A stretch of DNA of 64,000 bases from Spirochaetaceae bacterium (GCA_051531975.1 JAOPTT010000006.1:352656-416655); one strand, 5' to 3'; counted from the stretch's first letter, positions 13,390 through 40,535 are shown. Made by a program: numbers and translations. Notes: a model not told the origin generated them from the sequence alone.

Positions 13390-13944
13390 TTATGTAGAAA
13401 TAATGTGGTTCTTGAGTTTTTTATCTCTAAAATACTTATAGAAATCTATATTTTCAGTGAGTTCTGGGTGAAATGTTGTTACTAATATTCTATTATATTC
13501 AGCAGCAACAACTTCTCCATCATACATAGACAATATATCAACTTTCTTATCTACTTCTTTTATTTTAGGTGCTCTAATAAACTTAACTCTACATATTTTA
13601 TTTTGAAATTTTATATCAGTTATAAAGCTATTAGAATGGCTTCCATAACCGTTTCTTTGAACTTTAATATCTATTAGTTTTAAATGATTAGCTAATAAAA
13701 TTAAACCTGCACATGTACCCCATATAAACAATCCTTTATGATATTGATTAATAATAGCTCTATCTAAACCTTTAATTTTTAATATTTTAGCTAATGTGGT
13801 GCTTTCGCCTCCAGGAATTATAAGTCTAGAGATACCTTCTAGGTCTTGGGGGTCATTTACTAATCTGACTATATCACCCTGGGTTTCTATAACTGTAGAG
13901 TGTTCAAGGACTGAACCCTGAAGTGCCAAAACACCAATAATCAT
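13390..13944 (-). CDS. pdxT: PLP synthase glutaminase subunit
   Basis: GVLALQG, PGGEST, GTCAG, FIRAP, FHPEL. Confidence 0.96.
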   Translation of the reverse strand: MIIGVLALQGSVLEHSTVIETQGDIVRLVNDPQDLEGISRLIIPGGESTTLAKILKIKGLDRAIINQYHKGLFIWGTCAGLILLANHLKLIDIKVQRNGYGSHSNSFITDIKFQNKICRVKFIRAPKIKEVDKKVDILSMYDGEVVAAEYNRILVTTFHPELTENIDFYKYFRDKKLKNHIIST

Positions 13945-14816
13945 TACCAGCCCCTTTTGGCAAATGTTGTTTTTACTTCAGAAGCCACAGTTGAATCCAT
14001 ACAATTACCTAGATCTTCAGAAACTTTTGCTAATAATTTAGGGTCATTAAAATATGCAACAGCTTCAACAATAGCTTTAGCTCTTTTTGCTGGATTATCA
14101 GATTTAAAAATACCTGAACCTACAAATACTCCATCGCAGCCTAGTTGCATCATTAGTGCTGCATCAGCAGGAGTTGCAATTCCACCAGCTGCAAAATTAA
14201 CAACAGGTAGTGTCCCCTTTTCTTTTATGCTTTTTACAAGTTCAAATGGTGCTTTAAAATCCCTTGCCAAGGTCATTAACTGCTCATTCGTAGAAGATAT
14301 TACCTTTTGAATATCAGAGGTCATCTGTCTCATATGCCTAACAGCCTCTACTACATCCCCGGTACCTGCTTCACCTTTTGTTCTAATCATTGAAGCACCT
14401 TCTCCAATTCTTCTTAATGCCTCACCAAGATCTCTTGCTCCACAAACAAAAGGAATTTTAAAATCAGTTTTATTTATATGATATTCTTCATCTGCGTAAG
14501 TTAAGACTTCACTTTCATCAACAAAATCTATTTCAATTGCTTCTAATATTTGTGCTTCAACAAAATGACCAATACGTACTTTAGCCATAACAGGAATTGT
14601 AACTGCATTTTGAATATCCCTAATCATTTTTGGATCAGACATTCTAGAAACGCCACCTTCTTTTCTAATGTCAGAAGGCACTCTCTCTAACGCCATTACA
14701 GCTACAGCCCCGGCTTCTTGGGCAATTATTGCTTGTTCAGGATTGATCACGTCCATAATCACACCACCTTTAAGCATTTTTGCAAGATCTTTATTTATTT
14801 CTACTCTTTCATTCAT
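13944..14816 (-). CDS. pdxS: PLP synthase lyase subunit
   Basis: [36 protein letters not shown]. Confidence 0.98.
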
Positions 14817-14903
14817 ATTTTCTCCTTCAATTTACAACTCGACAATAAGTTGTGTCTTGGTAATAGGTCAATATTTACCAGTACAATAGTTTATATATTG
14901 CAG

Positions 14904-14941
14904 ATTGTTACCAATTAAAGCATAATTGTATCGTAACAATT
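14904..14941. promoter_or_regulatory. Candidate PdxR operator
   Basis: ATTGTTAC (14904-11) / GTAACAAT (14933-40) perfect inverted pair, plus AATTGT-N6-ACAATT, between divergent pdxS and pdxR. Confidence 0.5.
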
Positions 14942-14950
14942 GGAGAGATT

Positions 14951-16333
14951 ATGAATAGCACAGATTTTTTTATAGATAAAACAAATGGCCCTCTTTATAT
15001 ACAATTATATGAAAACATCAGATCTAAAATATTAAAAAAGGATCTTTTAGATGGTGAAAAATTACCTACTATAAGGTCCTTGGCAATGGAACTTAAAGTA
15101 AATAATATTACTATTATTAATGCATACAAAAAACTTGAAGAAAATAATTTAGTAGAAAAAAAAGTAGGTAGTGGTTGTTTCGTAAAAAAAAGATCCCTGA
15201 GTTTCTCTACAAATATTATGGATCTTACTGGAACTGATTCTAATATTGATAATTTCCCATTACAAGACTTAAAAGATTCCATCAATTATGTTTTAAATAA
15301 TGATGGATTAGATGTTTTTAAATATGAGGATTCAAGAGGGAATTTTGAACTTAAACTTTGTCTAACTGAATATTTTAAGAAATATAATATTGATACAACA
15401 CCAGAACTTATTCAGATTGTTTCAGGGGGGCAGCAGGCTCTTGATATCATATCAAAATCTCTCATTGTATATGGAGAGACTGTTTTTACTGAAACCCCAA
15501 CATATAAAGGGGCAATTGATAGTTTTAAAAGCCGTGAAGCAAGAATTATAGATATTAATCTTGATGAAGATGGTATAAATATAAATGAGTTGGAAGCTAA
15601 ACTACAAATACGAAAACCATCATTAATTTATATCATGCCATTTAATCAGAAACCTACTGGGATAACCTATTCCCTAAAGAAGAAAAAAAAGTTAATAGAA
15701 CTAGCACACAGATACAATTTTTATATTATAGAAGATGATATGGGCAGTGAAATAGAGTTTAATAGAGAAGATTCATCAACTCTAAAGAGTCTAGATATAT
15801 ACGATCGAGTAATATACATAAAAAGTTTTACTCCTTTATTTATGCCTGGATTAAGGCTTGGTTGTTTAGTTGCCCCCAAAACTATTTACAATAAACTATT
15901 AAATTCTAAATTATCTACAGATATTTCTACTTCTGGACTTTTACAAAGAGCTTTCACGCATTATTTAACTAACTTTGATTGGCAAGATTATTACAATAAT
16001 CTCTCAAATGAATTGATGAAAAAGATAGATTTTGTAACAAACATTTTAAATCATGAGTTCTTAGATCTACTTGATTTTAATAATAATTCTATATCCACTA
16101 GTTTCTGGTTTAAATTAAAACTTGGAGATGGGGAAAAATTAGCTGAAATTTGTAACACTAATAACTTAAGGATAATTCCTGGTGCATATATGGGTGTCGA
16201 TTATACAAATTATTTTCGGATAAATTTAAATAGTATCCCCTACAAAAATATAAAAAAGGCTATGAATGTTTTAAAAAAATCTATAACTGATTTATATTTA
16301 ATAAAAAGAGAATCAAAAAATGACTTTTATTAG
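14951..16333 (+). CDS. pdxR: MocR/GabR-family regulator (GntR HTH plus PLP aminotransferase domain), PdxR-like
   Basis: N-terminal PLYIQLY..KLPTIRSLA HTH; SGGQQAL, IIEDD, PGLRLG; divergent from pdxST. Confidence 0.85.
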   Translation: MNSTDFFIDKTNGPLYIQLYENIRSKILKKDLLDGEKLPTIRSLAMELKVNNITIINAYKKLEENNLVEKKVGSGCFVKKRSLSFSTNIMDLTGTDSNIDNFPLQDLKDSINYVLNNDGLDVFKYEDSRGNFELKLCLTEYFKKYNIDTTPELIQIVSGGQQALDIISKSLIVYGETVFTETPTYKGAIDSFKSREARIIDINLDEDGININELEAKLQIRKPSLIYIMPFNQKPTGITYSLKKKKKLIELAHRYNFYIIEDDMGSEIEFNREDSSTLKSLDIYDRVIYIKSFTPLFMPGLRLGCLVAPKTIYNKLLNSKLSTDISTSGLLQRAFTHYLTNFDWQDYYNNLSNELMKKIDFVTNILNHEFLDLLDFNNNSISTSFWFKLKLGDGEKLAEICNTNNLRIIPGAYMGVDYTNYFRINLNSIPYKNIKKAMNVLKKSITDLYLIKRESKNDFY

Positions 16334-16455
16334 TAATTATTTGATAAAAATGTGTCAAATCTATATTTAATAATAATAATTACTAATAAAAAATCAAAAA
16401 TATATTGTTAAAGATTAATATAAACATATATAATTGATTAAGAGGTTTAAAAAAT

Positions 16456-17610
16456 ATGGTAGAAATATTAAGTAGAATACAGTTTGCGTTTGCTATTGGT
16501 TTTCATTTTTTGTTTGTTCCACTGAGCATTGGTTTAATTTTTTTAGTTTGTATATATGAATTTTATCATTTAAAAACAAAAAATATTAAATACAAACATC
16601 TTTCTGAATTTTATGGAGATATGTTTGTAATTAATTATGCTTTTGGAATTGTTACAGGCTTTACTATGAGTTTGCAGTTTGGTACTAATTGGTCTGCATA
16701 TTCGATGTATATGGGAGATGTATTTGGTGCTCCATTGGTTATTGAAGCAATTATTGCATTCTTTTTAGAATCAACATTTACAGGTTTATGGATATTTAAA
16801 AAGAATAAAATGTCTGGAAGGCTTAGATTTATAACTGTTTTACTAATTTTTATAGGTACTAACTTCTCAGCATTATGGATTATAACAGCAAATGGTTTTA
16901 TGCAAAATCCGGTGGGTTATAAGATCGCCATTGATGGAAGTAGAATTTTAGTTGATAACTTCCGAGAGATAATATTTAATCCTTATGCTTGGTATATGTT
17001 AATACATAATAACTTATCTGCTATTTTACTTGGTGCTTATTTTGTCTTAGGTATTGGAGCATACAAGTATCTAAAATTAGATAAAGAAAGTGATGAAGCT
17101 AAAACTTTTGAAATGGGATTTAGGCCAGCGAATAAAATTTTAGTAGTTTCTGCTATTTTAATGCCTATAGTTGGTTATTCTTATTTTAACTATATAGTAC
17201 CAATTCAGCCTTTAAAAATTGATGCTGTAAGTGGTGGAAATCCTTTTGTTACAATTGCATTCGCTTTAATGGTTGGTTTAGGTACATTGTTTATTTTATA
17301 TTCAATTTATACTTTGGTTTTCTTTAAAAAGTATATGAAATCGCCAACTATGCAAAAGTTCTATTTATGGACATTTTTTCTCCCATACATTGCAATACTT
17401 TCTGGATGGGTAGTAGCGGAAGTTGGAAGACAACCATATGTTGTTTATGGTCTTATGTTAACTAAAGATGCTGTAAGTACGGTTCCAGTTATGCAGGTAT
17501 GGTTTTCTTTAATAACTATATTTGTTATGTATTTTATTTTAGCAGTGGGATGCATTTATCTACTTATTAAAAGAGTTAAAGCTCCTTTAATTAAAGAGGA
17601 GACAGTATGA
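16456..17610 (+). CDS. cydA: Cytochrome bd-type oxidase subunit I, lacking the Q-loop
   Basis: SRIQFA..H17, QFGTNW, FFLESTF, NGFMQNP, H184, MVGLG, GWVVAEVGRQP; only 384 aa. Confidence 0.92.
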   Translation: MVEILSRIQFAFAIGFHFLFVPLSIGLIFLVCIYEFYHLKTKNIKYKHLSEFYGDMFVINYAFGIVTGFTMSLQFGTNWSAYSMYMGDVFGAPLVIEAIIAFFLESTFTGLWIFKKNKMSGRLRFITVLLIFIGTNFSALWIITANGFMQNPVGYKIAIDGSRILVDNFREIIFNPYAWYMLIHNNLSAILLGAYFVLGIGAYKYLKLDKESDEAKTFEMGFRPANKILVVSAILMPIVGYSYFNYIVPIQPLKIDAVSGGNPFVTIAFALMVGLGTLFILYSIYTLVFFKKYMKSPTMQKFYLWTFFLPYIAILSGWVVAEVGRQPYVVYGLMLTKDAVSTVPVMQVWFSLITIFVMYFILAVGCIYLLIKRVKAPLIKEETV

Positions 17611-18614
17611 GTCACGAATTATTAGCAAATCTTTGGTATTATTTATTAGTATTAGTTTGGAGTATTTACATTAGTCAGGAACTTTTTGTAACTGGTGTTA
17701 GTATGTTAAGTATTAATTATAAAGTTGAAGATAAATCTTTCAAATTGATTAATGAATGTGTTGGAACTTTCTGGGATGGAATTCAAGTTTGGTTAATTGT
17801 TGCTATTGGTGGCTTGTTTGCAACCTTCCCTACAGCATATGGTTTAACTCTACAAGCTCTCTATATCCCATTTTATCTACTCTTAGTCGCTATTATATTT
17901 AGAGGAACATCCATTGAACTTATTTATAAATCTGATGATCCATTATGGCGGAAAGCTCTAAGTAAAATTTGGGTTATATCAAGTTTTCTTCTAATTTTTA
18001 TAGAAGGTGTTTATCTGGTTAACTTATTTATAGGTTTACCAATAAAAAACCAGCTAATGACAGAGAATTTTCTCACTATTTTTTCTAGAGCCACGTTATT
18101 AGGTGGACTTTTATTTACATTAACAGCTCTTTCTATGGGTTATACGTGGATAAAGTTAACCCTAGGAAAGGATTTTAAAACACCATCTAAAAAATCAATT
18201 TTATGGATAAGTGGTGCTATGGTTTTTGTTTGTACATTATTGTTTTTATCTTTAACAAATGAACATATAGTATTTGAATCAGGTCTATTTGCTGAATTAC
18301 CAGTTTTATGGATATTACCAATATCAGCAATGTTATTATTTTTGTTACAGTTTATTTTTCATTTATTTGAAAAATATGTTGTTGTATTTATTACAACTAT
18401 TCTAGGAATATCATTAGTACTTTTTACAGGTTTTAGTGCTTCTTTCCCATATATTTTACCATCAAATATTGATCCATCTGAAGGTATTAAAATAATAGAT
18501 GCCGCTGCTTCTGTTCATGCATTAGAAATTATTACAATTGTAGCTGCTATTTTCTTACCAGTTGTTATTGGTTATCAGACATGGAAGTATGTAAAATTTG
18601 GGAGAAAATTTTAG
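17607..18614 (+). CDS. cydB: Cytochrome bd-type oxidase subunit II (divergent)
   Basis: FWDGIQVWL, GGLFATFPTAY, IFRGTSIE, C-terminal PVVIGYQTWKY; ATGA overlap with cydA. Confidence 0.88.
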   Translation: MSHELLANLWYYLLVLVWSIYISQELFVTGVSMLSINYKVEDKSFKLINECVGTFWDGIQVWLIVAIGGLFATFPTAYGLTLQALYIPFYLLLVAIIFRGTSIELIYKSDDPLWRKALSKIWVISSFLLIFIEGVYLVNLFIGLPIKNQLMTENFLTIFSRATLLGGLLFTLTALSMGYTWIKLTLGKDFKTPSKKSILWISGAMVFVCTLLFLSLTNEHIVFESGLFAELPVLWILPISAMLLFLLQFIFHLFEKYVVVFITTILGISLVLFTGFSASFPYILPSNIDPSEGIKIIDAAASVHALEIITIVAAIFLPVVIGYQTWKYVKFGRKF

Positions 18615-19760
18615 ATGAAAGTTATTACAAATAAATTACCTTTAAAACATATTTATGGTGATCTTGATAGTATGGTTTTAGATTTTGTTCGTATTCTTTA
18701 TGTATTAGCAGGTTTATCAATTATATTTAATTCAATTTACGATGTTGCTTTTGGTATTAAAGCAGTATTAATTATATTAGTAAGTATAATTGTATCTAGA
18801 GAGACAGAGATTTTCTTTTTAACTCAAAAATCTGATGTACCTAGAGCTGAAGCTAAAGAAGCAATTAAAATTACAAAACCTGAAGTTACAGGGATAATCT
18901 TTGCACTTCTACTACCTGTAGGTACACCAATATTTGTTGTTATTGTTGGTGCATTCATAAGTATTTTTGTTGGTAAGATGATTTTTGGTGGATATTCATT
19001 TAATGTATTTAACCCAGCGATTATTGGTAGACTTTTTGTAGGTATTGCATGGCCAGCTCTAGTAACTATTAATTTTCCTAATATTATGGATAACTACTTA
19101 TTAGGCCTAATTTTTAATAAGGATTATTCTATAGAATTATTATCTCCACTTATGATGTTACAAGAAAATGGAATAGTTTCATTATTAAATATGAATACTA
19201 TTAGCTCATTATTATTCAAACCAAATTTTGGTATGATGTTTTCTTTACCTAGTATAGTTTATCTTTTATTGATAGTTCACTTTACCGTTGGTAAGAAAAT
19301 TGATATGAAACCAATTTTATTTTCAATTTTGGCTTCTGTTATAGTTCTCGGAGTAATATCTATTGGTTTTAATCTAGGCATATATTATGTTTTATTTCAC
19401 TTTTTAACTGGTGGGTTTTTATTTGTAACTCTTTTTATGATGACGGATCCATTTACTAAACCATTTAATAGTATTGGAGTATTGTATTATTCAGTAATTT
19501 TTGTTTTTACTTTTACTTTAATAAGGTTTTTGGGAAAAGGCGCTGATGGTGTATTAAATGCTCTGTTATTTTCTAATCTTTTTGTTCCTTTATTAAATAA
19601 AAAAACTAAAGGGTTTGTATTTGGTTTAAATAAAAAAAGTATATTAGCAGTTGTAATTATGCTTCTAGTTCTTTTGGGTACTGGATTATTCATTAATTCA
19701 ATTCTAGGTTATAGAATTGAAGTTGGAGAAGTTATGGTGAATGCATATGTTAAAAGTTAG
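18615..19760 (+). CDS. rnfD: RnfD/NqrB-family membrane subunit (divergent)
   Basis: VTGIIFALLLP, KMIFGG..N.FNPA, FMMTDPFT; starts at the base after the cydB stop. Confidence 0.85.
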   Translation: MKVITNKLPLKHIYGDLDSMVLDFVRILYVLAGLSIIFNSIYDVAFGIKAVLIILVSIIVSRETEIFFLTQKSDVPRAEAKEAIKITKPEVTGIIFALLLPVGTPIFVVIVGAFISIFVGKMIFGGYSFNVFNPAIIGRLFVGIAWPALVTINFPNIMDNYLLGLIFNKDYSIELLSPLMMLQENGIVSLLNMNTISSLLFKPNFGMMFSLPSIVYLLLIVHFTVGKKIDMKPILFSILASVIVLGVISIGFNLGIYYVLFHFLTGGFLFVTLFMMTDPFTKPFNSIGVLYYSVIFVFTFTLIRFLGKGADGVLNALLFSNLFVPLLNKKTKGFVFGLNKKSILAVVIMLLVLLGTGLFINSILGYRIEVGEVMVNAYVKS

Positions 19761-20286
19761 TTTAAAATATGGTGGGATTTTATTTATAACTGCAGTGATT
19801 TGTGCTTTTTGTGTTTCAGCAGTTTTTGTTATAGTTGAACCAATTATTATTGAAAGAACTATGGATAAAGTTAGAGAAAATTTAAATTATATTTTTTCTG
19901 GAACTAGTTTTGAATATAAAGATGTTTCTGGTGAATTTAATGCTTTAGATATTAAAAATGCAGATGCACTTTATAATGTTTCTTTAGAGAATGGAACTAC
20001 TAATTATGTTTATGAAATGAGTCCTGAGGGGCGAAATGATGAGATCCTGTTTTTAATTGCTTATGATAAAGATGGTAATGTTGTAAAAATACAATATGTT
20101 CAGATGCGTGAAACTAGAGGACGTGGAGATAAGATAACTAAAGATAACTATTTAGATAAAATATATAATCAAAATGCGTCTGATATGGATGTTGATATGA
20201 TAACAGGTGCTACATATTCTTCAGGTGCCATGAAACAAAGTATTGAAGATAGTTCAAACCACTTAATTAGTGAGGTTTTAAAATGA
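19741..20286 (+). CDS. rnfG: RnfG FMN-binding subunit
   Basis: N-terminal TM, ETRGRG, flavinylation motif DMITGATYSS. Confidence 0.88.
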   Translation: MHMLKVSLKYGGILFITAVICAFCVSAVFVIVEPIIIERTMDKVRENLNYIFSGTSFEYKDVSGEFNALDIKNADALYNVSLENGTTNYVYEMSPEGRNDEILFLIAYDKDGNVVKIQYVQMRETRGRGDKITKDNYLDKIYNQNASDMDVDMITGATYSSGAMKQSIEDSSNHLISEVLK

Positions 20287-20993
20287 AAAATTACGGTAAA
20301 GATTTATATCGTGGAATAGTGAAAGAGAACCCTACTTTTGTTCTATTTTTAGGAATGTGTCCTACTCTTGCATTAACAAATAACTTAACTAATGCAGTTG
20401 GAATGGGTTTGAGTGTTGTGGTTGTTTTAGCTATTACAAATACGATGATATCTCTTATTAGAAAAATAATTCCGGATGATATTCGTATCCCAGTTTATAT
20501 CACAGTCATTGCATCTGTAGTAACTATCTTAGGTATGTTAATGGAGGCTTATTTACCAGCTTTATTTGAGAGTCTAGGAATCTACTTACCTCTTATTGTT
20601 GTTAACTGTATCATTTTAGGTAGAGCTGAAGCATTTGCATCTCAAAATCCTGTTATGGATTCATTTATAGATGGAATATCAAGTGGATTAGGTTTTTTAC
20701 TTGGTCTCTCAACGTTAGCTTTTTTTAGAGAACTAATTGGTTCCGGTGCTGTTGAACTTCTTAAATTTAGATTAATAGATGCAAATCATGCACCAGTTAT
20801 CTTTATAGAATCATCAGGTGCTTTCTTAATGTTTGGTTTAATAGCGTGGATGATTAATACTATTAAAATAAATAAAGAAAAAGAAGCAAAAAGGGTTAAA
20901 GCTGAGTTCATAAAGCAAAAGATGGCAGAAGCAAAACTGAAAAAAGAACAATTTGAAAATGATAAATTGAAAAAGGCAGATGAAAATGAATAG
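20283..20993 (+). CDS. rnfE: RnfE subunit
   Basis: ENPTFVLFLGMCPTLA, RIPVYI, PLIVVNCIILGRAE, FREL.G.G. Confidence 0.95.
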   Translation: MKNYGKDLYRGIVKENPTFVLFLGMCPTLALTNNLTNAVGMGLSVVVVLAITNTMISLIRKIIPDDIRIPVYITVIASVVTILGMLMEAYLPALFESLGIYLPLIVVNCIILGRAEAFASQNPVMDSFIDGISSGLGFLLGLSTLAFFRELIGSGAVELLKFRLIDANHAPVIFIESSGAFLMFGLIAWMINTIKINKEKEAKRVKAEFIKQKMAEAKLKKEQFENDKLKKADENE

Positions 20994-21591
20994 TGTAGTA
21001 CAATTAGTAACAATAGCATTTAGTGCTTTTTTAATTCAAAACATAATACTTACTCAGTTTTTAGGTCTATGTTCATTTTTTGGAGTTGGAAATAAGGAAG
21101 AGTCTGCTTTAGGAATGGGACTTGCTGTTACATTTGTAATAACACTTTCTTCTATTGCAACTTATGCTCTGTATATATTTGTTTTAGTACCGTTTAAACT
21201 CGAATTTCTTTCAACAATATCCTTTATCTTAGTTGTAAGTGGTCTTGTTCAATTTGTAGAAATGGTCATAAAAAAATATGTTCCTGGTCTATATAAAAGT
21301 TTGGGAGTATACCTTCCTTTAATCACAACAAATTGTGCAGTTCTTGGTGTTGCACTGTTAAATATAGATAAAATAAATCCTGATGCGACTATGGGAATGA
21401 ATTTTCTGATGATGTTGTTATTTAGTTTTTTTACAGCATCTGGCTATGCTTTTGTAATCTACCTGTTTTCATTAATAAGAGAACAAATTGCTAAGACTCC
21501 AATTCATCCTGGGCTTAAAGGTGTACCTATTGCTTTAATTACTGCATTTGTAATGGCTATGGGGTTTAATGGCTTTGTAGGAATGTTTTAA
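20980..21591 (+). CDS. rnfA: RnfA subunit
   Basis: QFLGLC, GMGLAVTFV, VQFVEM, LPLITTNCAVLG, GVPIALIT. Confidence 0.95.
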   Translation: MKMNSVVQLVTIAFSAFLIQNIILTQFLGLCSFFGVGNKEESALGMGLAVTFVITLSSIATYALYIFVLVPFKLEFLSTISFILVVSGLVQFVEMVIKKYVPGLYKSLGVYLPLITTNCAVLGVALLNIDKINPDATMGMNFLMMLLFSFFTASGYAFVIYLFSLIREQIAKTPIHPGLKGVPIALITAFVMAMGFNGFVGMF

Positions 21592-21773
21592 TGAGAATTA
21601 TAGTTGCTGCCTTAGTTGTATTAGCTCTTATTAGTTTTTATCTAATTATGTGGAAACTAAATAAGAAACAAAAGTTACCGGATGGAATTGAAGAGTCATT
21701 AAAGACATGCGATTCATGTGGTGAAAATGGGTGTGGACTACATCCTAATCAGAGAGGTAAAAATAATGAATAG
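21591..21773 (+). CDS. Small membrane protein with Cys cluster (CxxCxxxxC)
   Basis: 60 aa, N-terminal TM, CDSCGENGC; TAATG overlap with rnfA and overlap with the next start codon. Confidence 0.8.
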   Translation: MRIIVAALVVLALISFYLIMWKLNKKQKLPDGIEESLKTCDSCGENGCGLHPNQRGKNNE

Positions 21774-22068
21774 CATAATTATAAATGCAGTAGTGGTAAT
21801 TGGAGTTGTAGGTTTAATAATAGGCCTACTACTTGGAGTTGCGTCAATAATATTTGCAGTTAAAGTAGATGAACGTGTTAAAGCTGTTTACGATTTACTA
21901 CCCCATTTTAACTGTGGTTCTTGTGGATTTCCTGGATGTGCAGGAATGGCTCAAGGATTAGTAAATTCAGAGGTTCCAATTAGTAATTGTAAACCTTCTA
22001 AACCAGATGGTAAGCAGAAGATCAAAGAAGTATTAGATTCGTATGGTATAGAAAATAGATTATCATAA
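21766..22068 (+). CDS. rnfB: Mini RnfB (TM anchor plus first Fe-S domain only)
   Basis: 100 aa from ATG 21766 (GAGG upstream); VDERV..LP..NCGSCGFPGC....CKP; no ferredoxin domains. Confidence 0.85.
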   Translation: MNSIIINAVVVIGVVGLIIGLLLGVASIIFAVKVDERVKAVYDLLPHFNCGSCGFPGCAGMAQGLVNSEVPISNCKPSKPDGKQKIKEVLDSYGIENRLS

Positions 22069-22086
22069 AATTAGTATATTATTAGT

Positions 22087-22117
22087 AACAGCACTTAATT
22101 ATTTAAGTGCTGTTTTT
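22087..22117 (+). terminator. Intrinsic terminator closing the cyd-rnf operon
   Basis: AACAGCACTTAA-ttat-TTAAGTGCTGTT 12-bp stem with T-run. Confidence 0.85.
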
Positions 22118-22249
22118 ATTTATAATCAAAATTCGTAGTATTAAATAATTCATTTTTTATAGATTTTAATTTATATATAAAAATTTATCTTTTAATTCTT
22201 TATTTTTATATCGATATATATTATACTATTAGCATTAGGGAGCAAAAGT

Positions 22250-22405
22250 ATGAAAAATATTAAAAAAAGATTTAATGACTATTTAGAAAGACTAATTGTA
22301 ATCAACGAAAGAGAATTTGGACATGGAAGTTTGTCTTTATTAACTTTTAATAAAATTAATAAAAGATCAGGTAAGCTTAATTCTTTTTATAAACATCTAT
22401 TTTAA
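22250..22405 (+). CDS. Small ORF (51 aa) not in the ORF track
   Basis: AGGGAG 7 nt before ATG; MKNIKKRFNDYLERLIVINEREFGHGSL... Confidence 0.45.
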   Translation: MKNIKKRFNDYLERLIVINEREFGHGSLSLLTFNKINKRSGKLNSFYKHLF

Positions 22406-39527: not shown

Positions 39528-40535
39528 TTATTTTACATTAAGTTTAAATGACGAATCAGTTAACTTAAAATCATTTTTTATCTTTTCTGAAATATATATA
39601 TCTTTATTTTTTGTGACATATATTAATGATACTCCACCTATTTCTTCTGCTAACTTAAATCCCTTATCAATATCCATTGAAAAGAAAATAGTAGATAAAG
39701 CATCAGCATCCATACTTGATTTGGTTATTACAGATATAGAGGATATATCAGTAATAACTGGGTATCCAGTTTTAGTATCAAATATATGATGATATCTCTG
39801 ACCATCTAATTCAAAAAACCTTTCATAATCTCCACTTGAAACAACAGTACTATCTTTTAAACTTATTATTCCAATATAACTATTTCTTTCATCAAAGGGA
39901 TCCTGAATACCTACATTAAATGGTTTATTACCTTTTTTTTCTCCTAAAACTAATATGTTTCCACCAATATTAATTATGGCACTTGTTACACCATTAGATT
40001 CTAATAAAAGTTTTAATTGATCTGCTGCATAGCCTTTCGCAATACCACCTAAATCAAGAGACATTCCTAAAGGTATAAAAACTGTGTCTTTATCTAGTAT
40101 AATTTTTTTATAATCAATCATTGGTAAAACTTCATTTATTTGCTTTTGATCTGGAACCACTGTTCCACCTTTACCAATATTCCATAATTTCACTAATGGT
40201 TCAATTGATATATCAAAAATACCCTCAGATAATTCACCATAAAAAATACCTTTAGTTATAACATTCATGGTATCGGTAGATATTTGAACCTTTTTCACTC
40301 CTGCATTTATATTAATAAGAGATATATCACTACTTTCTATAGAAGTTGACATATTCTTTTCAAATTCATCTAATAACTCAAAACATTCTTTTAATAAATC
40401 TTTTGAGCCATGATCTTTTATACTAATAGATACCACTGTACCTAATACAAAATAACTTTCTTCATATGAATCATTTTTACTACAACTAGAAAAAAAAATT
40501 GCAATTATGAATAAATATATAATATTTTTTTTCAT
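39528..40535 (-). CDS. apbE: FAD:protein FMN transferase lipoprotein (ApbE/FmnB)
   Basis: Lipobox FSSC; DLGGIAKGYAAD, SSGDYER, YHHIFD..TGYP, DADALST. Confidence 0.95.
   Translation of the reverse strand: MKKNIIYLFIIAIFFSSCSKNDSYEESYFVLGTVVSISIKDHGSKDLLKECFELLDEFEKNMSTSIESSDISLININAGVKKVQISTDTMNVITKGIFYGELSEGIFDISIEPLVKLWNIGKGGTVVPDQKQINEVLPMIDYKKIILDKDTVFIPLGMSLDLGGIAKGYAADQLKLLLESNGVTSAIINIGGNILVLGEKKGNKPFNVGIQDPFDERNSYIGIISLKDSTVVSSGDYERFFELDGQRYHHIFDTKTGYPVITDISSISVITKSSMDADALSTIFFSMDIDKGFKLAEEIGGVSLIYVTKNKDIYISEKIKNDFKLTDSSFKLNVK

Follow-up and report, generated by a model that had tools for sequence, protein, structure and literature searches.

Operon structure

The 64,000-nucleotide stretch of DNA from Spirochaetaceae bacterium that we analysed (GCA_051531975.1 JAOPTT010000006.1:352656-416655), here called the window, carries on its + strand an operon in which the two genes of a cytochrome bd oxidase run directly into a set of Rnf genes. 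The contig that holds it is the largest of its assembly (G000), which measures 5.46 Mb and is 98.5% complete. Calling of open reading frames (ORFs), with the junctions read from the sequence, gives eight ORFs at 16456-22068 with zero intergenic gap, in the order cydA-cydB-rnfD-rnfG-rnfE-rnfA-p60-mini rnfB; the ORFs, Pfam and NCBIfam show no rnfC in the operon, and the two libraries back every gene assignment except that of p60, which has no match. The comparative evidence set out below strongly supports the view that the two halves belong together, in place of the quinol and nicotinamide adenine dinucleotide (NAD+) chemistry that each would otherwise carry out.

The first gene, cydA (16456-17610), encodes a 384-residue subunit I without the quinol loop (Q-loop), matched by PF01654 in two stretches (5.3e-110), and cydB (17607-18614) encodes the 335-residue subunit II (PF02322, 4.9e-55; TIGR00203, 151.9 bits, above the cut-off of 117.3). 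The rnfD-like gene at 18615-19760 (381 residues) matches PF03116 (2e-43) and scores 126.6 bits with TIGR01946, below the cut-off of 207. It is followed by an rnfG-like gene (19741-20286), whose 181-residue product has one N-terminal helix and an FMN_bind domain (PF04205, 2.3e-12), and by two genes of the PF02508 family, rnfE (20283-20993; 236 residues; TIGR01948, 230.1 bits, above the cut-off of 213.4) and rnfA (20980-21591; 203 residues; TIGR01943, 3.9e-63). The last two genes are small: p60 (21591-21773) encodes 60 residues, one transmembrane helix and then C-x2-C-x4-C-G-x-H-P, and matches no family above cut-off, while mini rnfB (21766-22068) encodes a 100-residue protein, RnfB', that consists of an N-terminal helix and a four-cysteine Fe-S domain (PF04060, 5.1e-12). 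The true ATG of mini rnfB is at 21766; the ORF caller offers a longer GTG start at 21718.

An earlier note on this DNA, made from its sequence, had claimed a gapless operon with a single shared terminator, and both claims hold. The cydA/cydB and rnfG/rnfE junctions are ATGA overlaps; cydB and rnfD abut in the same frame, with the TAG of the one, alone between them, followed at once by the ATG of the other; rnfD and rnfG overlap by 20 bases and rnfE and rnfA by 14; rnfA and p60 meet at TAATG, and p60 and mini rnfB overlap in ATGAATAG. A terminator-like hairpin with a 12-bp stem (22087-22114, + strand), followed by a T-run to 22124, is the single + strand terminator-like site within 16200-22400, so that none lies inside the operon. 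Just 5' of cydA is a sigma-70-like promoter-like site (TTGTTA-18-TATAAT; 16405-16434, + strand), the top + strand match to the consensus, although it is a consensus match alone and such matches in the region are not in excess over shuffles. A single metatranscriptome run from the same sample yielded one 159-base contig in cydA (17391-17549) and none that spans a junction, a result that does not serve as evidence for transcription or for an operon.

A cytochrome bd subunit without the quinol loop

The best matches of the window CydA are the structures of E. coli bd-I and bd-II (2.8e-70 and 9.7e-64), and it aligns to residues 7-258 and 388-497 of E. coli AppC (7ose_A) and to residues 7-211 and 387-497 of E. 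coli CydA. Aligned to the solved bd oxidases, it is thus short of some 130 residues, those of the Q-loop (about E. coli 258-388), as the earlier note had proposed, while the haem and proton-channel residues are all in place: the equivalents of H19, H186, M393, E99, E107, E445 and R448 are retained. At the quinol site itself K252 is retained and E257 is a serine. The same pattern extends across the family, where H17, H184, M272, E97, E105, E322, R325 and K254 (the Lys252 equivalent) are invariant in 58 aligned members and the E257 position is not conserved. The short form is also the rule, since nearly all of the top 120 CydA database clusters (90% identity) are 380-395 residues long. The window protein reaches 239 bits with the NCBIfam equivalog models, whose cut-offs are 968 and 1025.

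In terms of the known families, the window protein has the haem ligands, the channel and active-site glutamates and the adjacent true CydB that define the bd superfamily. It lacks the signature of the qOR families, a periplasmic Q-loop (helices 6-7) with Lys252 and Glu257. Its two cysteines lie far apart and it contains no CxxCH, which sets it outside OR-C; it shares the absence of a quinol site with OR-N, a family of 10-14 helices in which CydA-like paralogues take the place of CydB, yet it has a true CydB partner and the glutamate spacing of qOR1. Because of that spacing of the channel glutamates and its true CydB, its sequence is best read as that of an E. coli-type bd subunit after loop loss, outside the OR-C and OR-N families.

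One relative, P0014 (521 residues), which is 73% identical to the window CydA and likewise lacks the Q-loop, has a 137-residue acidic insertion rich in threonine and valine in the outer loop after helix 4.

cydAB in the place of rnfC

With CydA as bait, species-representative genomes yielded 12 loci. Five of these (L017, L018, L019, L020 and L023) hold the full cydAB-rnfDGEA-B' operon, with CydA identities of 51-80%; three more (L021, L022 and L024) are truncated at contig ends and are consistent with that operon; L025-L027 belong to a variant with an RnfD-RnfG fusion, taken up below; and at L028, from Symbiobacterium, CydA is longer and the contig stops after cydB. In the reverse direction we searched metagenome contigs with a profile of bd-type RnfD, which gave 244 confirmed loci, and analysed the best 80, an RnfD being classed as bd-type if it scored far better against the window RnfD than against canonical RnfD. 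Directly upstream of the 21 bd-type rnfD genes we found cydB in 19 cases, the start of the contig in 2 and rnfC in none; directly upstream of the 59 remaining, sister genes we found rnfC in 57, the start of the contig in 2 and cydB in none. Duplicate contigs occur among the loci (L034 = L017; L041 = L042), so distinct sequences were counted as well. Since the gene in this position is cydB at 19/19 assessable bd-type loci and rnfC at 57/57 assessable sister loci, cydAB occupies the slot of rnfC.

A quick maximum-likelihood tree of RnfE places all 19 bd-linked sequences on one branch (support of 97 in the Shimodaira-Hasegawa-like approximate likelihood-ratio test, SH-aLRT), nested among rnfC-linked groups. 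The simplest history suggested by these sequences would be that cydAB took over from rnfC once, in an Rnf lineage already equipped with the mini-RnfB.

The earlier note had reckoned with the possibility that the arrangement was unique to this genome and in decay. The search for cydA beside rnfD/G/E/A without rnfC shows instead that it recurs widely, and all eight ORFs are intact, with nearly identical gene lengths and 55-89% identity, in G005, a genome of the same genus (CydA 84, CydB 72, RnfD 63, RnfG 77, RnfE 87, RnfA 89, p60 55 and RnfB' 82%).

Two kinds of gene recur beside these operons. A membrane protein of about 210 residues is encoded directly 5' of cydA, on the same strand, in 14/14 Izemoplasma-type loci with enough flank (L019:7149-7784; L020, L023, L041, L047, L051, L066, L094, L096, L115, L119, L121, L122 and L124). 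It has exactly two invariant histidines and a weak, sub-threshold match to the haem b domain of the ferric-reductase/MsrQ type (16.7 bits, cut-off 28); it is missing from the window clade and could be an additional electron-carrying component of the system. Just 3' of the operon in 4 loci (L018:13596-14219; L096, L121 and L122) is a gene for an AhpC/TSA peroxiredoxin, in keeping with a setting of oxidative stress.

The Rnf-derived half of the operon

The loss of the flavin site of RnfD, which the earlier note had also claimed, is borne out. At the position of the flavinylated threonine, where the references read TTATPL (7zc6_D) and VTGATPL (the canonical RnfD of the same genome), the window RnfD reads ELLSPL and the motif around it is missing. 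The aligned threonine is absent from 25/25 distinct bd-type RnfD sequences and present in 52/52 distinct sister sequences, a count that is not fully independent of the two classes because these were set by RnfD similarity; the count of upstream neighbours is independent. The bd-type proteins share a loop motif of their own, FDNYxLxLxF(D/N)NxFFNxTL, of which the window version is IMDNYLLGLIFNKDY. A profile search of 1.84 billion representatives found only about 8 clusters (50% identity; fragments among them) with scores that clearly exceed the plateau reached by ordinary RnfD. The bd-type family is compact in sequence space, yet it is common in marine and sediment metagenomes. In the window clade RnfD has an additional hydrophobic C-terminal helix (about 45 residues) that aligns with the linker helix of RnfD-RnfG fusion proteins found in some other operons, although RnfG here has a helix of its own; this may be the mark of a past fusion or split.

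The remaining redox sites are intact, so that the segment from RnfB through RnfA/E to RnfG has survived as the earlier note described it. RnfG carries DMITGAT, in agreement with the flavinylation motif Dxx(s/t)gA(T/S), and the flavinylated position is threonine or serine in 22/22 members of the bd-linked family. Both [2Fe-2S] cysteines are present in the window RnfE (GMCP, VVNC), which also has a tail rich in lysine and glutamate at its C-terminus, and in the window RnfA (LGLCS, TTNC). They are kept in 18/18 distinct bd-linked RnfE sequences; in RnfA, LGxCS is found in 18/18 and TTNC in 17/18, the single miss being an ORF truncated at a contig end. The four PF04060 cysteines of RnfB' are retained in 16/16 distinct bd-linked sequences. 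Bd-linked RnfG also has an invariant histidine close to its C-terminus (H174) that neither of the other RnfG proteins of the genome, two in number, shares.

RnfB' has no ferredoxin-like domains: TIGR01944 matches it over profile positions 4-89 of 190, and the genome's canonical RnfB has 277 residues. The earlier note was right that mini rnfB and the 60-residue ORF are there; they turn out to be common to rnfC-linked sister operons and are not losses peculiar to the bd system. An RnfB match was found at 43/59 sister loci, of 130 residues or fewer in 41 and above 200 in none, and a p60-like peptide is encoded between rnfA and rnfB in 24/59. Among bd-linked operons p60 is restricted to the window clade (the window, L017/L034, L018 and G005). 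The p60 family is defined by one helix followed by N(H/K)KTPxPxGCE...CxxCxxxxCGxHP, with four cysteines in sister operons and three in the window clade; against family libraries it gave nothing above cut-off, and sub-threshold matches to Fer2 (E 0.0046) and FeoB_associated (E 0.011) came from one sequence each.

The sister operons are a group in their own right. The order rnfC-D-G-E-A-p60-B' is found at metagenome loci L053-L069, L070, L081, L084, L088, L090, L092, L095, L098 and L101, with a mini-RnfB of 83-126 residues and a conserved membrane peptide of 59-70 residues with four cysteines (GCE...CxxCxxxxCGxHP), and in our sources we met no name for this Rnf type or its peptide. Many RnfD proteins of the group have long C-terminal extensions with additional TGAT/SGAT motifs.

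Other Rnf clusters in the same genome

The absence of rnfC on which the earlier note relied is true of the operon and not of the genome: G000, which has a single cydA, holds on contig C18, apart from the operon, a complete rnfCDGEAB, and rnfC there has a full set of partners of its own. This bears on the possibility that the two halves are co-transcribed and independent, an ordinary oxidase standing beside a partial Rnf that borrows the canonical RnfC or is otherwise employed. In its favour, the genome has an rnfC outside the operon, and 2/12 genomes in the sample described below have a short cydAB without a dedicated Rnf. The perfect split between cydB and rnfC in the upstream position argues against it, as do the loss in RnfD of the flavin relay through which RnfC would have to be reached, the lack of any rnfC in one carrier genome (G001), the full partner set of the G000 rnfC, an oxidase without a quinol loop and carriers that show no quinone pathway. 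We regard independence of the halves as very unlikely.

A third cluster of the Rnf/Nqr type lies outside the window (L031; G000 C9:419106-426680). It encodes a 277-residue protein limited to the C-terminal Fe-S part of RnfC/NqrA, followed by proteins like NqrB, C, D and E, and an NqrF-type reductase (278.7 bits, slightly below the cut-off of 295), whose gene is the sole NqrF-type gene of G000 and unrelated to the operon. Directly 3' are genes for a multihaem cytochrome c (hydrazine-dehydrogenase-like, DmsE-like) and for CcsB-type cytochrome c biogenesis. Here too an Rnf/Nqr core may be connected to a periplasmic acceptor of an unusual kind.

Distribution and probable transfer

Among 40 relatives at the family and class level, CydA was found only in G005. 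A database protein 84% identical to the window CydA carries the source name Thiospirochaeta perfilievii, a cultured type strain whose species description reportedly has 'oxygen-tolerant' in its title. The other near relatives come from metagenome-assembled genomes (MAGs) labelled Erysipelotrichia, Izemoplasma, Mycoplasmatota and Acholeplasmataceae, and according to record titles the carriers are from sulfidic or marine settings. The presence of CydA in 1/40 relatives, together with closest homologues in MAGs of another phylum, indicates that the unit moves as a whole, and these sequences suggest that it was probably acquired as such by this spirochaete genus. The G+C content of the operon (0.25-0.32) is level with that of its flanks, so the composition profile lends no support to a recent transfer.

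We also sampled 400 genomes of the phylum around an Izemoplasma genome (G003), taking CydA matches at E <= 1e-20. Twelve of the 400 have CydA, always short, in open frames of 386-409 residues, at 13 places: 8 are full operons, 2 have an RnfD-RnfG fusion of 504-512 residues after cydB, 1 is in G367 and 2 are in G233 and G364. The fusion variant (L025, L026, L027, L117/L128 and L123 across the searches) consists of cydAB and then a fused RnfD-RnfG protein of 490-512 residues in which the flavinylation motif of the G part is kept.

Quinone pathways, oxidases and cofactors in carrier genomes

Five carrier genomes were searched for pathways that bear on the function of the operon, namely G000 and the genomes that hold L017, L018, L020 and L023; the completeness figure given above is for G000 alone. 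Among the five, none has menA above cut-off, menB, or a member of the MqnA/D family above cut-off. Nor does any of them have a haem-copper oxidase, and no other membrane O2 reductase was found there. A match to rnfC above cut-off is present in 3/5; G003 has sub-cut-off matches only (the best at 225 bits, cut-off 246), and G001 has the operon with no credible rnfC match anywhere in the genome.

ApbE is the enzyme class that would flavinylate RnfG, and it is present in 4/5 carriers. In G000 the sole ApbE match, an ApbE-family flavin transferase (290.9 bits), is encoded within the window on the - strand at 39636-40445 (G000:C6:392291-393100); it serves the other Rnf/Nqr clusters too and is accessory, not operon-specific.

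Proposed electron path

In Rnf and Nqr complexes the RnfB clusters lie at the cytoplasmic face, the RnfA/E [2Fe-2S] cluster in mid-membrane and the covalent flavin mononucleotide (FMN) of RnfG at the outer face, and in canonical Rnf the return path through the RnfD FMN and RnfC leads to cytoplasmic NAD+. Haem b558 of bd oxidases is also close to the outer face, beneath the Q-loop. The operon thus lacks both the return path and the lid over b558 and strictly conserves the outward half of the Rnf route, which makes a path from RnfB' through RnfA/E and the RnfG FMN to b558, and then by way of haems b595 and d to O2, the most economical reading. We think it probable, on balance, that the operon encodes one functional unit in which an Rnf-derived wire feeds a quinol-independent bd oxidase. 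The product would be an oxidoreductase between a low-potential, ferredoxin-type donor and O2, composed of a Q-loop-deleted bd oxidase and a transmembrane wire derived from Rnf, the oxidase having replaced the NAD-reducing exit formed by RnfC and the RnfD FMN.

In such a system the single [4Fe-4S] cluster of mini-RnfB would receive electrons from the cytoplasm, most likely from ferredoxin or flavodoxin in the reduced state and possibly with the assistance of the cysteine-rich p60. We propose these donors because mini-RnfB also serves the rnfC-linked sisters and the organisms are fermenters. Electrons would then pass to the [2Fe-2S] cluster between RnfA and RnfE in mid-membrane, from there to the covalent FMN in the outer-face domain of RnfG, and from this FMN to CydA haem b558, exposed through the loss of the Q-loop; b558 would pass them to haems b595 and d, where O2 would be reduced to water. 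The flavin-free RnfD would serve as a scaffold and perhaps as an ion path. Since the cytoplasm would supply its electrons as well as its substrate protons, the bd half alone would build no membrane potential, and energy conservation would need ion pumping by the Rnf core; Na+-motive energy conservation by the operon product is possibly a part of its function. Co-occurrence, the loss of the RnfD flavin site and the lack of a detectable quinone pathway in five carriers all speak for the direct wiring that the earlier note suggested, whereas the existence of a single complex, the identity of the donor, the step from RnfG FMN to b558 and the pumping of Na+ are things that we infer. A more ambitious version is conceivable but doubtful: a quinone-free aerobic chain in one supercomplex, acting as a Na+-pumping ferredoxin:O2 oxidoreductase in which a swinging FMN domain of RnfG delivers electrons to b558, with conservation of energy and spread between phyla by transfer.

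The likely role of the system is the scavenging of O2 in fermentative anaerobes at oxic-anoxic and sulfidic interfaces. The module might instead be a unit with another job, one concerned with nitric oxide (NO), peroxide or sulfide-related stress, or with another donor. The NO alternative raised in the earlier note is compatible with all of our results; the peroxiredoxin gene that adjoins the operon in 4 loci and the sulfidic or marine settings named in the record titles would suit such a role, and a mini-RnfB with one cluster and no ferredoxin-like domains leaves room for a different donor. Yet every residue for O2 reduction and proton delivery is invariant, the five carriers have no other membrane O2 reductase that we could find, and the sharing of mini-RnfB with rnfC-linked sisters makes it evidently a working point of electron entry or exit, so that we consider a different job improbable.

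Observations that weigh against direct wiring

Several observations count against a dedicated, directly wired oxidase. None of our results demonstrates that the two halves touch or exchange electrons; a prediction of the complex of CydA, CydB and the periplasmic domain of RnfG, which gave no answer (score 0.00, no controls), weighs neither for nor against contact. Searches for fused proteins of greater length found no match for CydB at E <= 1e-10 and, for RnfD, one 855-residue protein with PF22248 and PF03116 and no CydB domain; these two negatives are weak evidence. HemB was found in G000 and G001 and not in the other 3/5 carriers, so that organisms with the small genomes of the Izemoplasma type would depend on haem from outside, and G001 has no ApbE match.

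Exceptions in gene arrangement point the same way. In 2/12 CydA-bearing genomes of the 400-genome sample (G233 and G364) the Rnf clusters, which lie elsewhere than the short cydAB, are rnfC-linked only, which implies that the short oxidase can exist without a dedicated Rnf module, unless these MAGs are incomplete; the CydA sequences of these two form their own clade (SH-aLRT 99). In G367 (L118, L125) the bd-type rnfDGEA lies about 9.6 kb from the short cydAB on the same strand and RnfD keeps DTVMGAT. This is possibly an intermediate arrangement. In the Acholeplasmataceae-type variant, that of the RnfD-RnfG fusion, the RnfE and RnfA encoded beside cydAB lack all four [2Fe-2S] cysteines, so the simple electron path cannot apply there as written; three of its loci (L026, L027 and L123) go on to another D/G/E/A set, this one with the cysteines and again without rnfC.

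Quinones need to be considered too. In solved bd oxidases from actinobacteria there is a further quinone site close to haem b595, and the loss of the Q-loop alone is therefore no proof of quinol independence. G000 encodes a distant MenA-like prenyltransferase (105 bits, cut-offs 239-555), and from its sequences the use of scavenged naphthoquinone precursors is conceivable. One could accordingly picture the Rnf-like module acting as a Na+-NQR, with RnfD reducing a bound or scavenged naphthoquinone that the bd oxidase re-oxidises outside the Q-loop. NqrB, the subunit of Nqr that reduces quinone, is a homologue of RnfD, and the quinol-site K252 is invariant in the short-CydA family, so that this picture can draw on both halves of the operon as well as on the MenA-like gene and the second quinone site. 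A quinone pool is, moreover, presumed in the parts of two Izemoplasma papers available to us (PMC8397711, PMC7761423). What makes it unlikely in our judgement is that the Nqr route to quinone uses the FMN of NqrB, and the corresponding site is lost in 25/25 bd-type RnfD sequences, that E257 is not conserved and the entire Q-loop is missing, and that menB, MqnA/D above cut-off and menA above cut-off were each found in 0/5 carriers.

Neighbouring genes

The genes on either side are unrelated to the operon. Upstream, at 13390-16333 of the window, pdxT and pdxS (- strand) lie beside a divergent GntR-family regulator with an aminotransferase-like domain (460 residues, + strand), which we take to be the usual layout of a PdxR-type regulator and its targets. 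Downstream, on the opposite strand, are genes for an RlmA-type methyltransferase and a membrane adenylate cyclase.

Comparison with known systems

To our knowledge, all characterised cytochrome bd oxidases draw their electrons from quinols and all characterised Rnf complexes end at NAD+. If our interpretation is correct, no earlier bd oxidase would have received its electrons from the cytoplasm through a protein wire, no earlier Rnf core would have had another exit than NAD+, and the Rnf/Nqr membrane core would emerge as a reusable plug-in for sending electrons outward. It would explain the presence of a bd oxidase and 'two Rnf complexes' in Izemoplasma and Mollicutes that have no evident quinone pool or respiratory chain, and it would provide a mechanism for the oxygen tolerance of fermentative anaerobes in sulfidic sediments; were the quinone-free supercomplex real, wall-less and other 'strict' anaerobes that lack quinones could remove O2 and conserve energy in doing so. 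The protein attributed to the type strain of T. perfilievii makes the proposal testable in culture.

In the parts available to us, the genome papers on Izemoplasma and Mollicutes list the bd oxidase and 'two Rnf complexes' as separate items (PMC6256511, PMC8397711, PMC7761423), and the transcriptome passages of the Izemoplasma isolate paper name no gene of the cydAB-rnf operon. Our literature search, which covered neither the original Izimaplasma genome paper nor the supplements of Murali et al., found no paper on a linkage of cydAB to rnfDGEA or on an Rnf-fed bd oxidase. Murali, Gennis and Hemp (2021, bioRxiv 10.1101/2021.01.16.426971) described, in the portion of their work that we saw, the OR-C and OR-N families, which are likewise of the bd type without a quinol site, and predicted that families of this kind use other donors encoded in the same operon; the main text as seen, supplements aside, makes no mention of Rnf, Nqr or ferredoxin. 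Their pipeline filtered out CydA sequences in which features of the quinol site were missing (10.1101/2021.01.16.426971), which may explain the absence of the short-CydA group from their set. The oxidases of OR-C and OR-N have 8-14 helices, and CydA is accompanied in them by CydA-like paralogues or haem c domains, whereas the window oxidase is of the qOR1 type with a real CydB and no CxxCH; the spacing of 7 residues between E99 and E107 that the same authors report for the qOR1 subfamily is found in it too.

Of the characterised oxidases, E. coli bd-I and bd-II (CydAB, AppCB; 6rko, 7ose) have the same true CydB, haem ligands and proton-channel glutamates; the window CydA differs from them in lacking the Q-loop and a conserved E257, in sharing its operon with Rnf genes and in belonging to carriers without a detected quinone pathway. 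The Rnf complex RnfCDGEAB (7zc6, 8ahx, 9eri) has homologous D, G, E, A and B subunits in the same order, with the same RnfG flavinylation site, RnfA/E [2Fe-2S] cysteines and first RnfB cluster, whereas the window operon has neither RnfC nor the RnfD flavinylation site, has an RnfB of 100 residues and has cydAB in the place of rnfC. The nearest sister group that we found is that of the rnfC-linked mini-RnfB operons (rnfC-D-G-E-A-p60-B'), which have the same mini-RnfB, a p60-like peptide and RnfE and RnfA that are close in the tree; they keep rnfC (57/57 assessable loci) and the RnfD threonine (52/52 distinct sequences), and the window operon has neither. Although the operon is also without NqrA, NqrF and the FMN site of the NqrB homologue, and we have no evidence of a quinone acceptor, the membrane core of Na+-NQR (NqrABCDEF; 7xk3) is homologous to its own, NqrB, C, D and E corresponding to RnfD, G, E and A, with the same electron route across the membrane.

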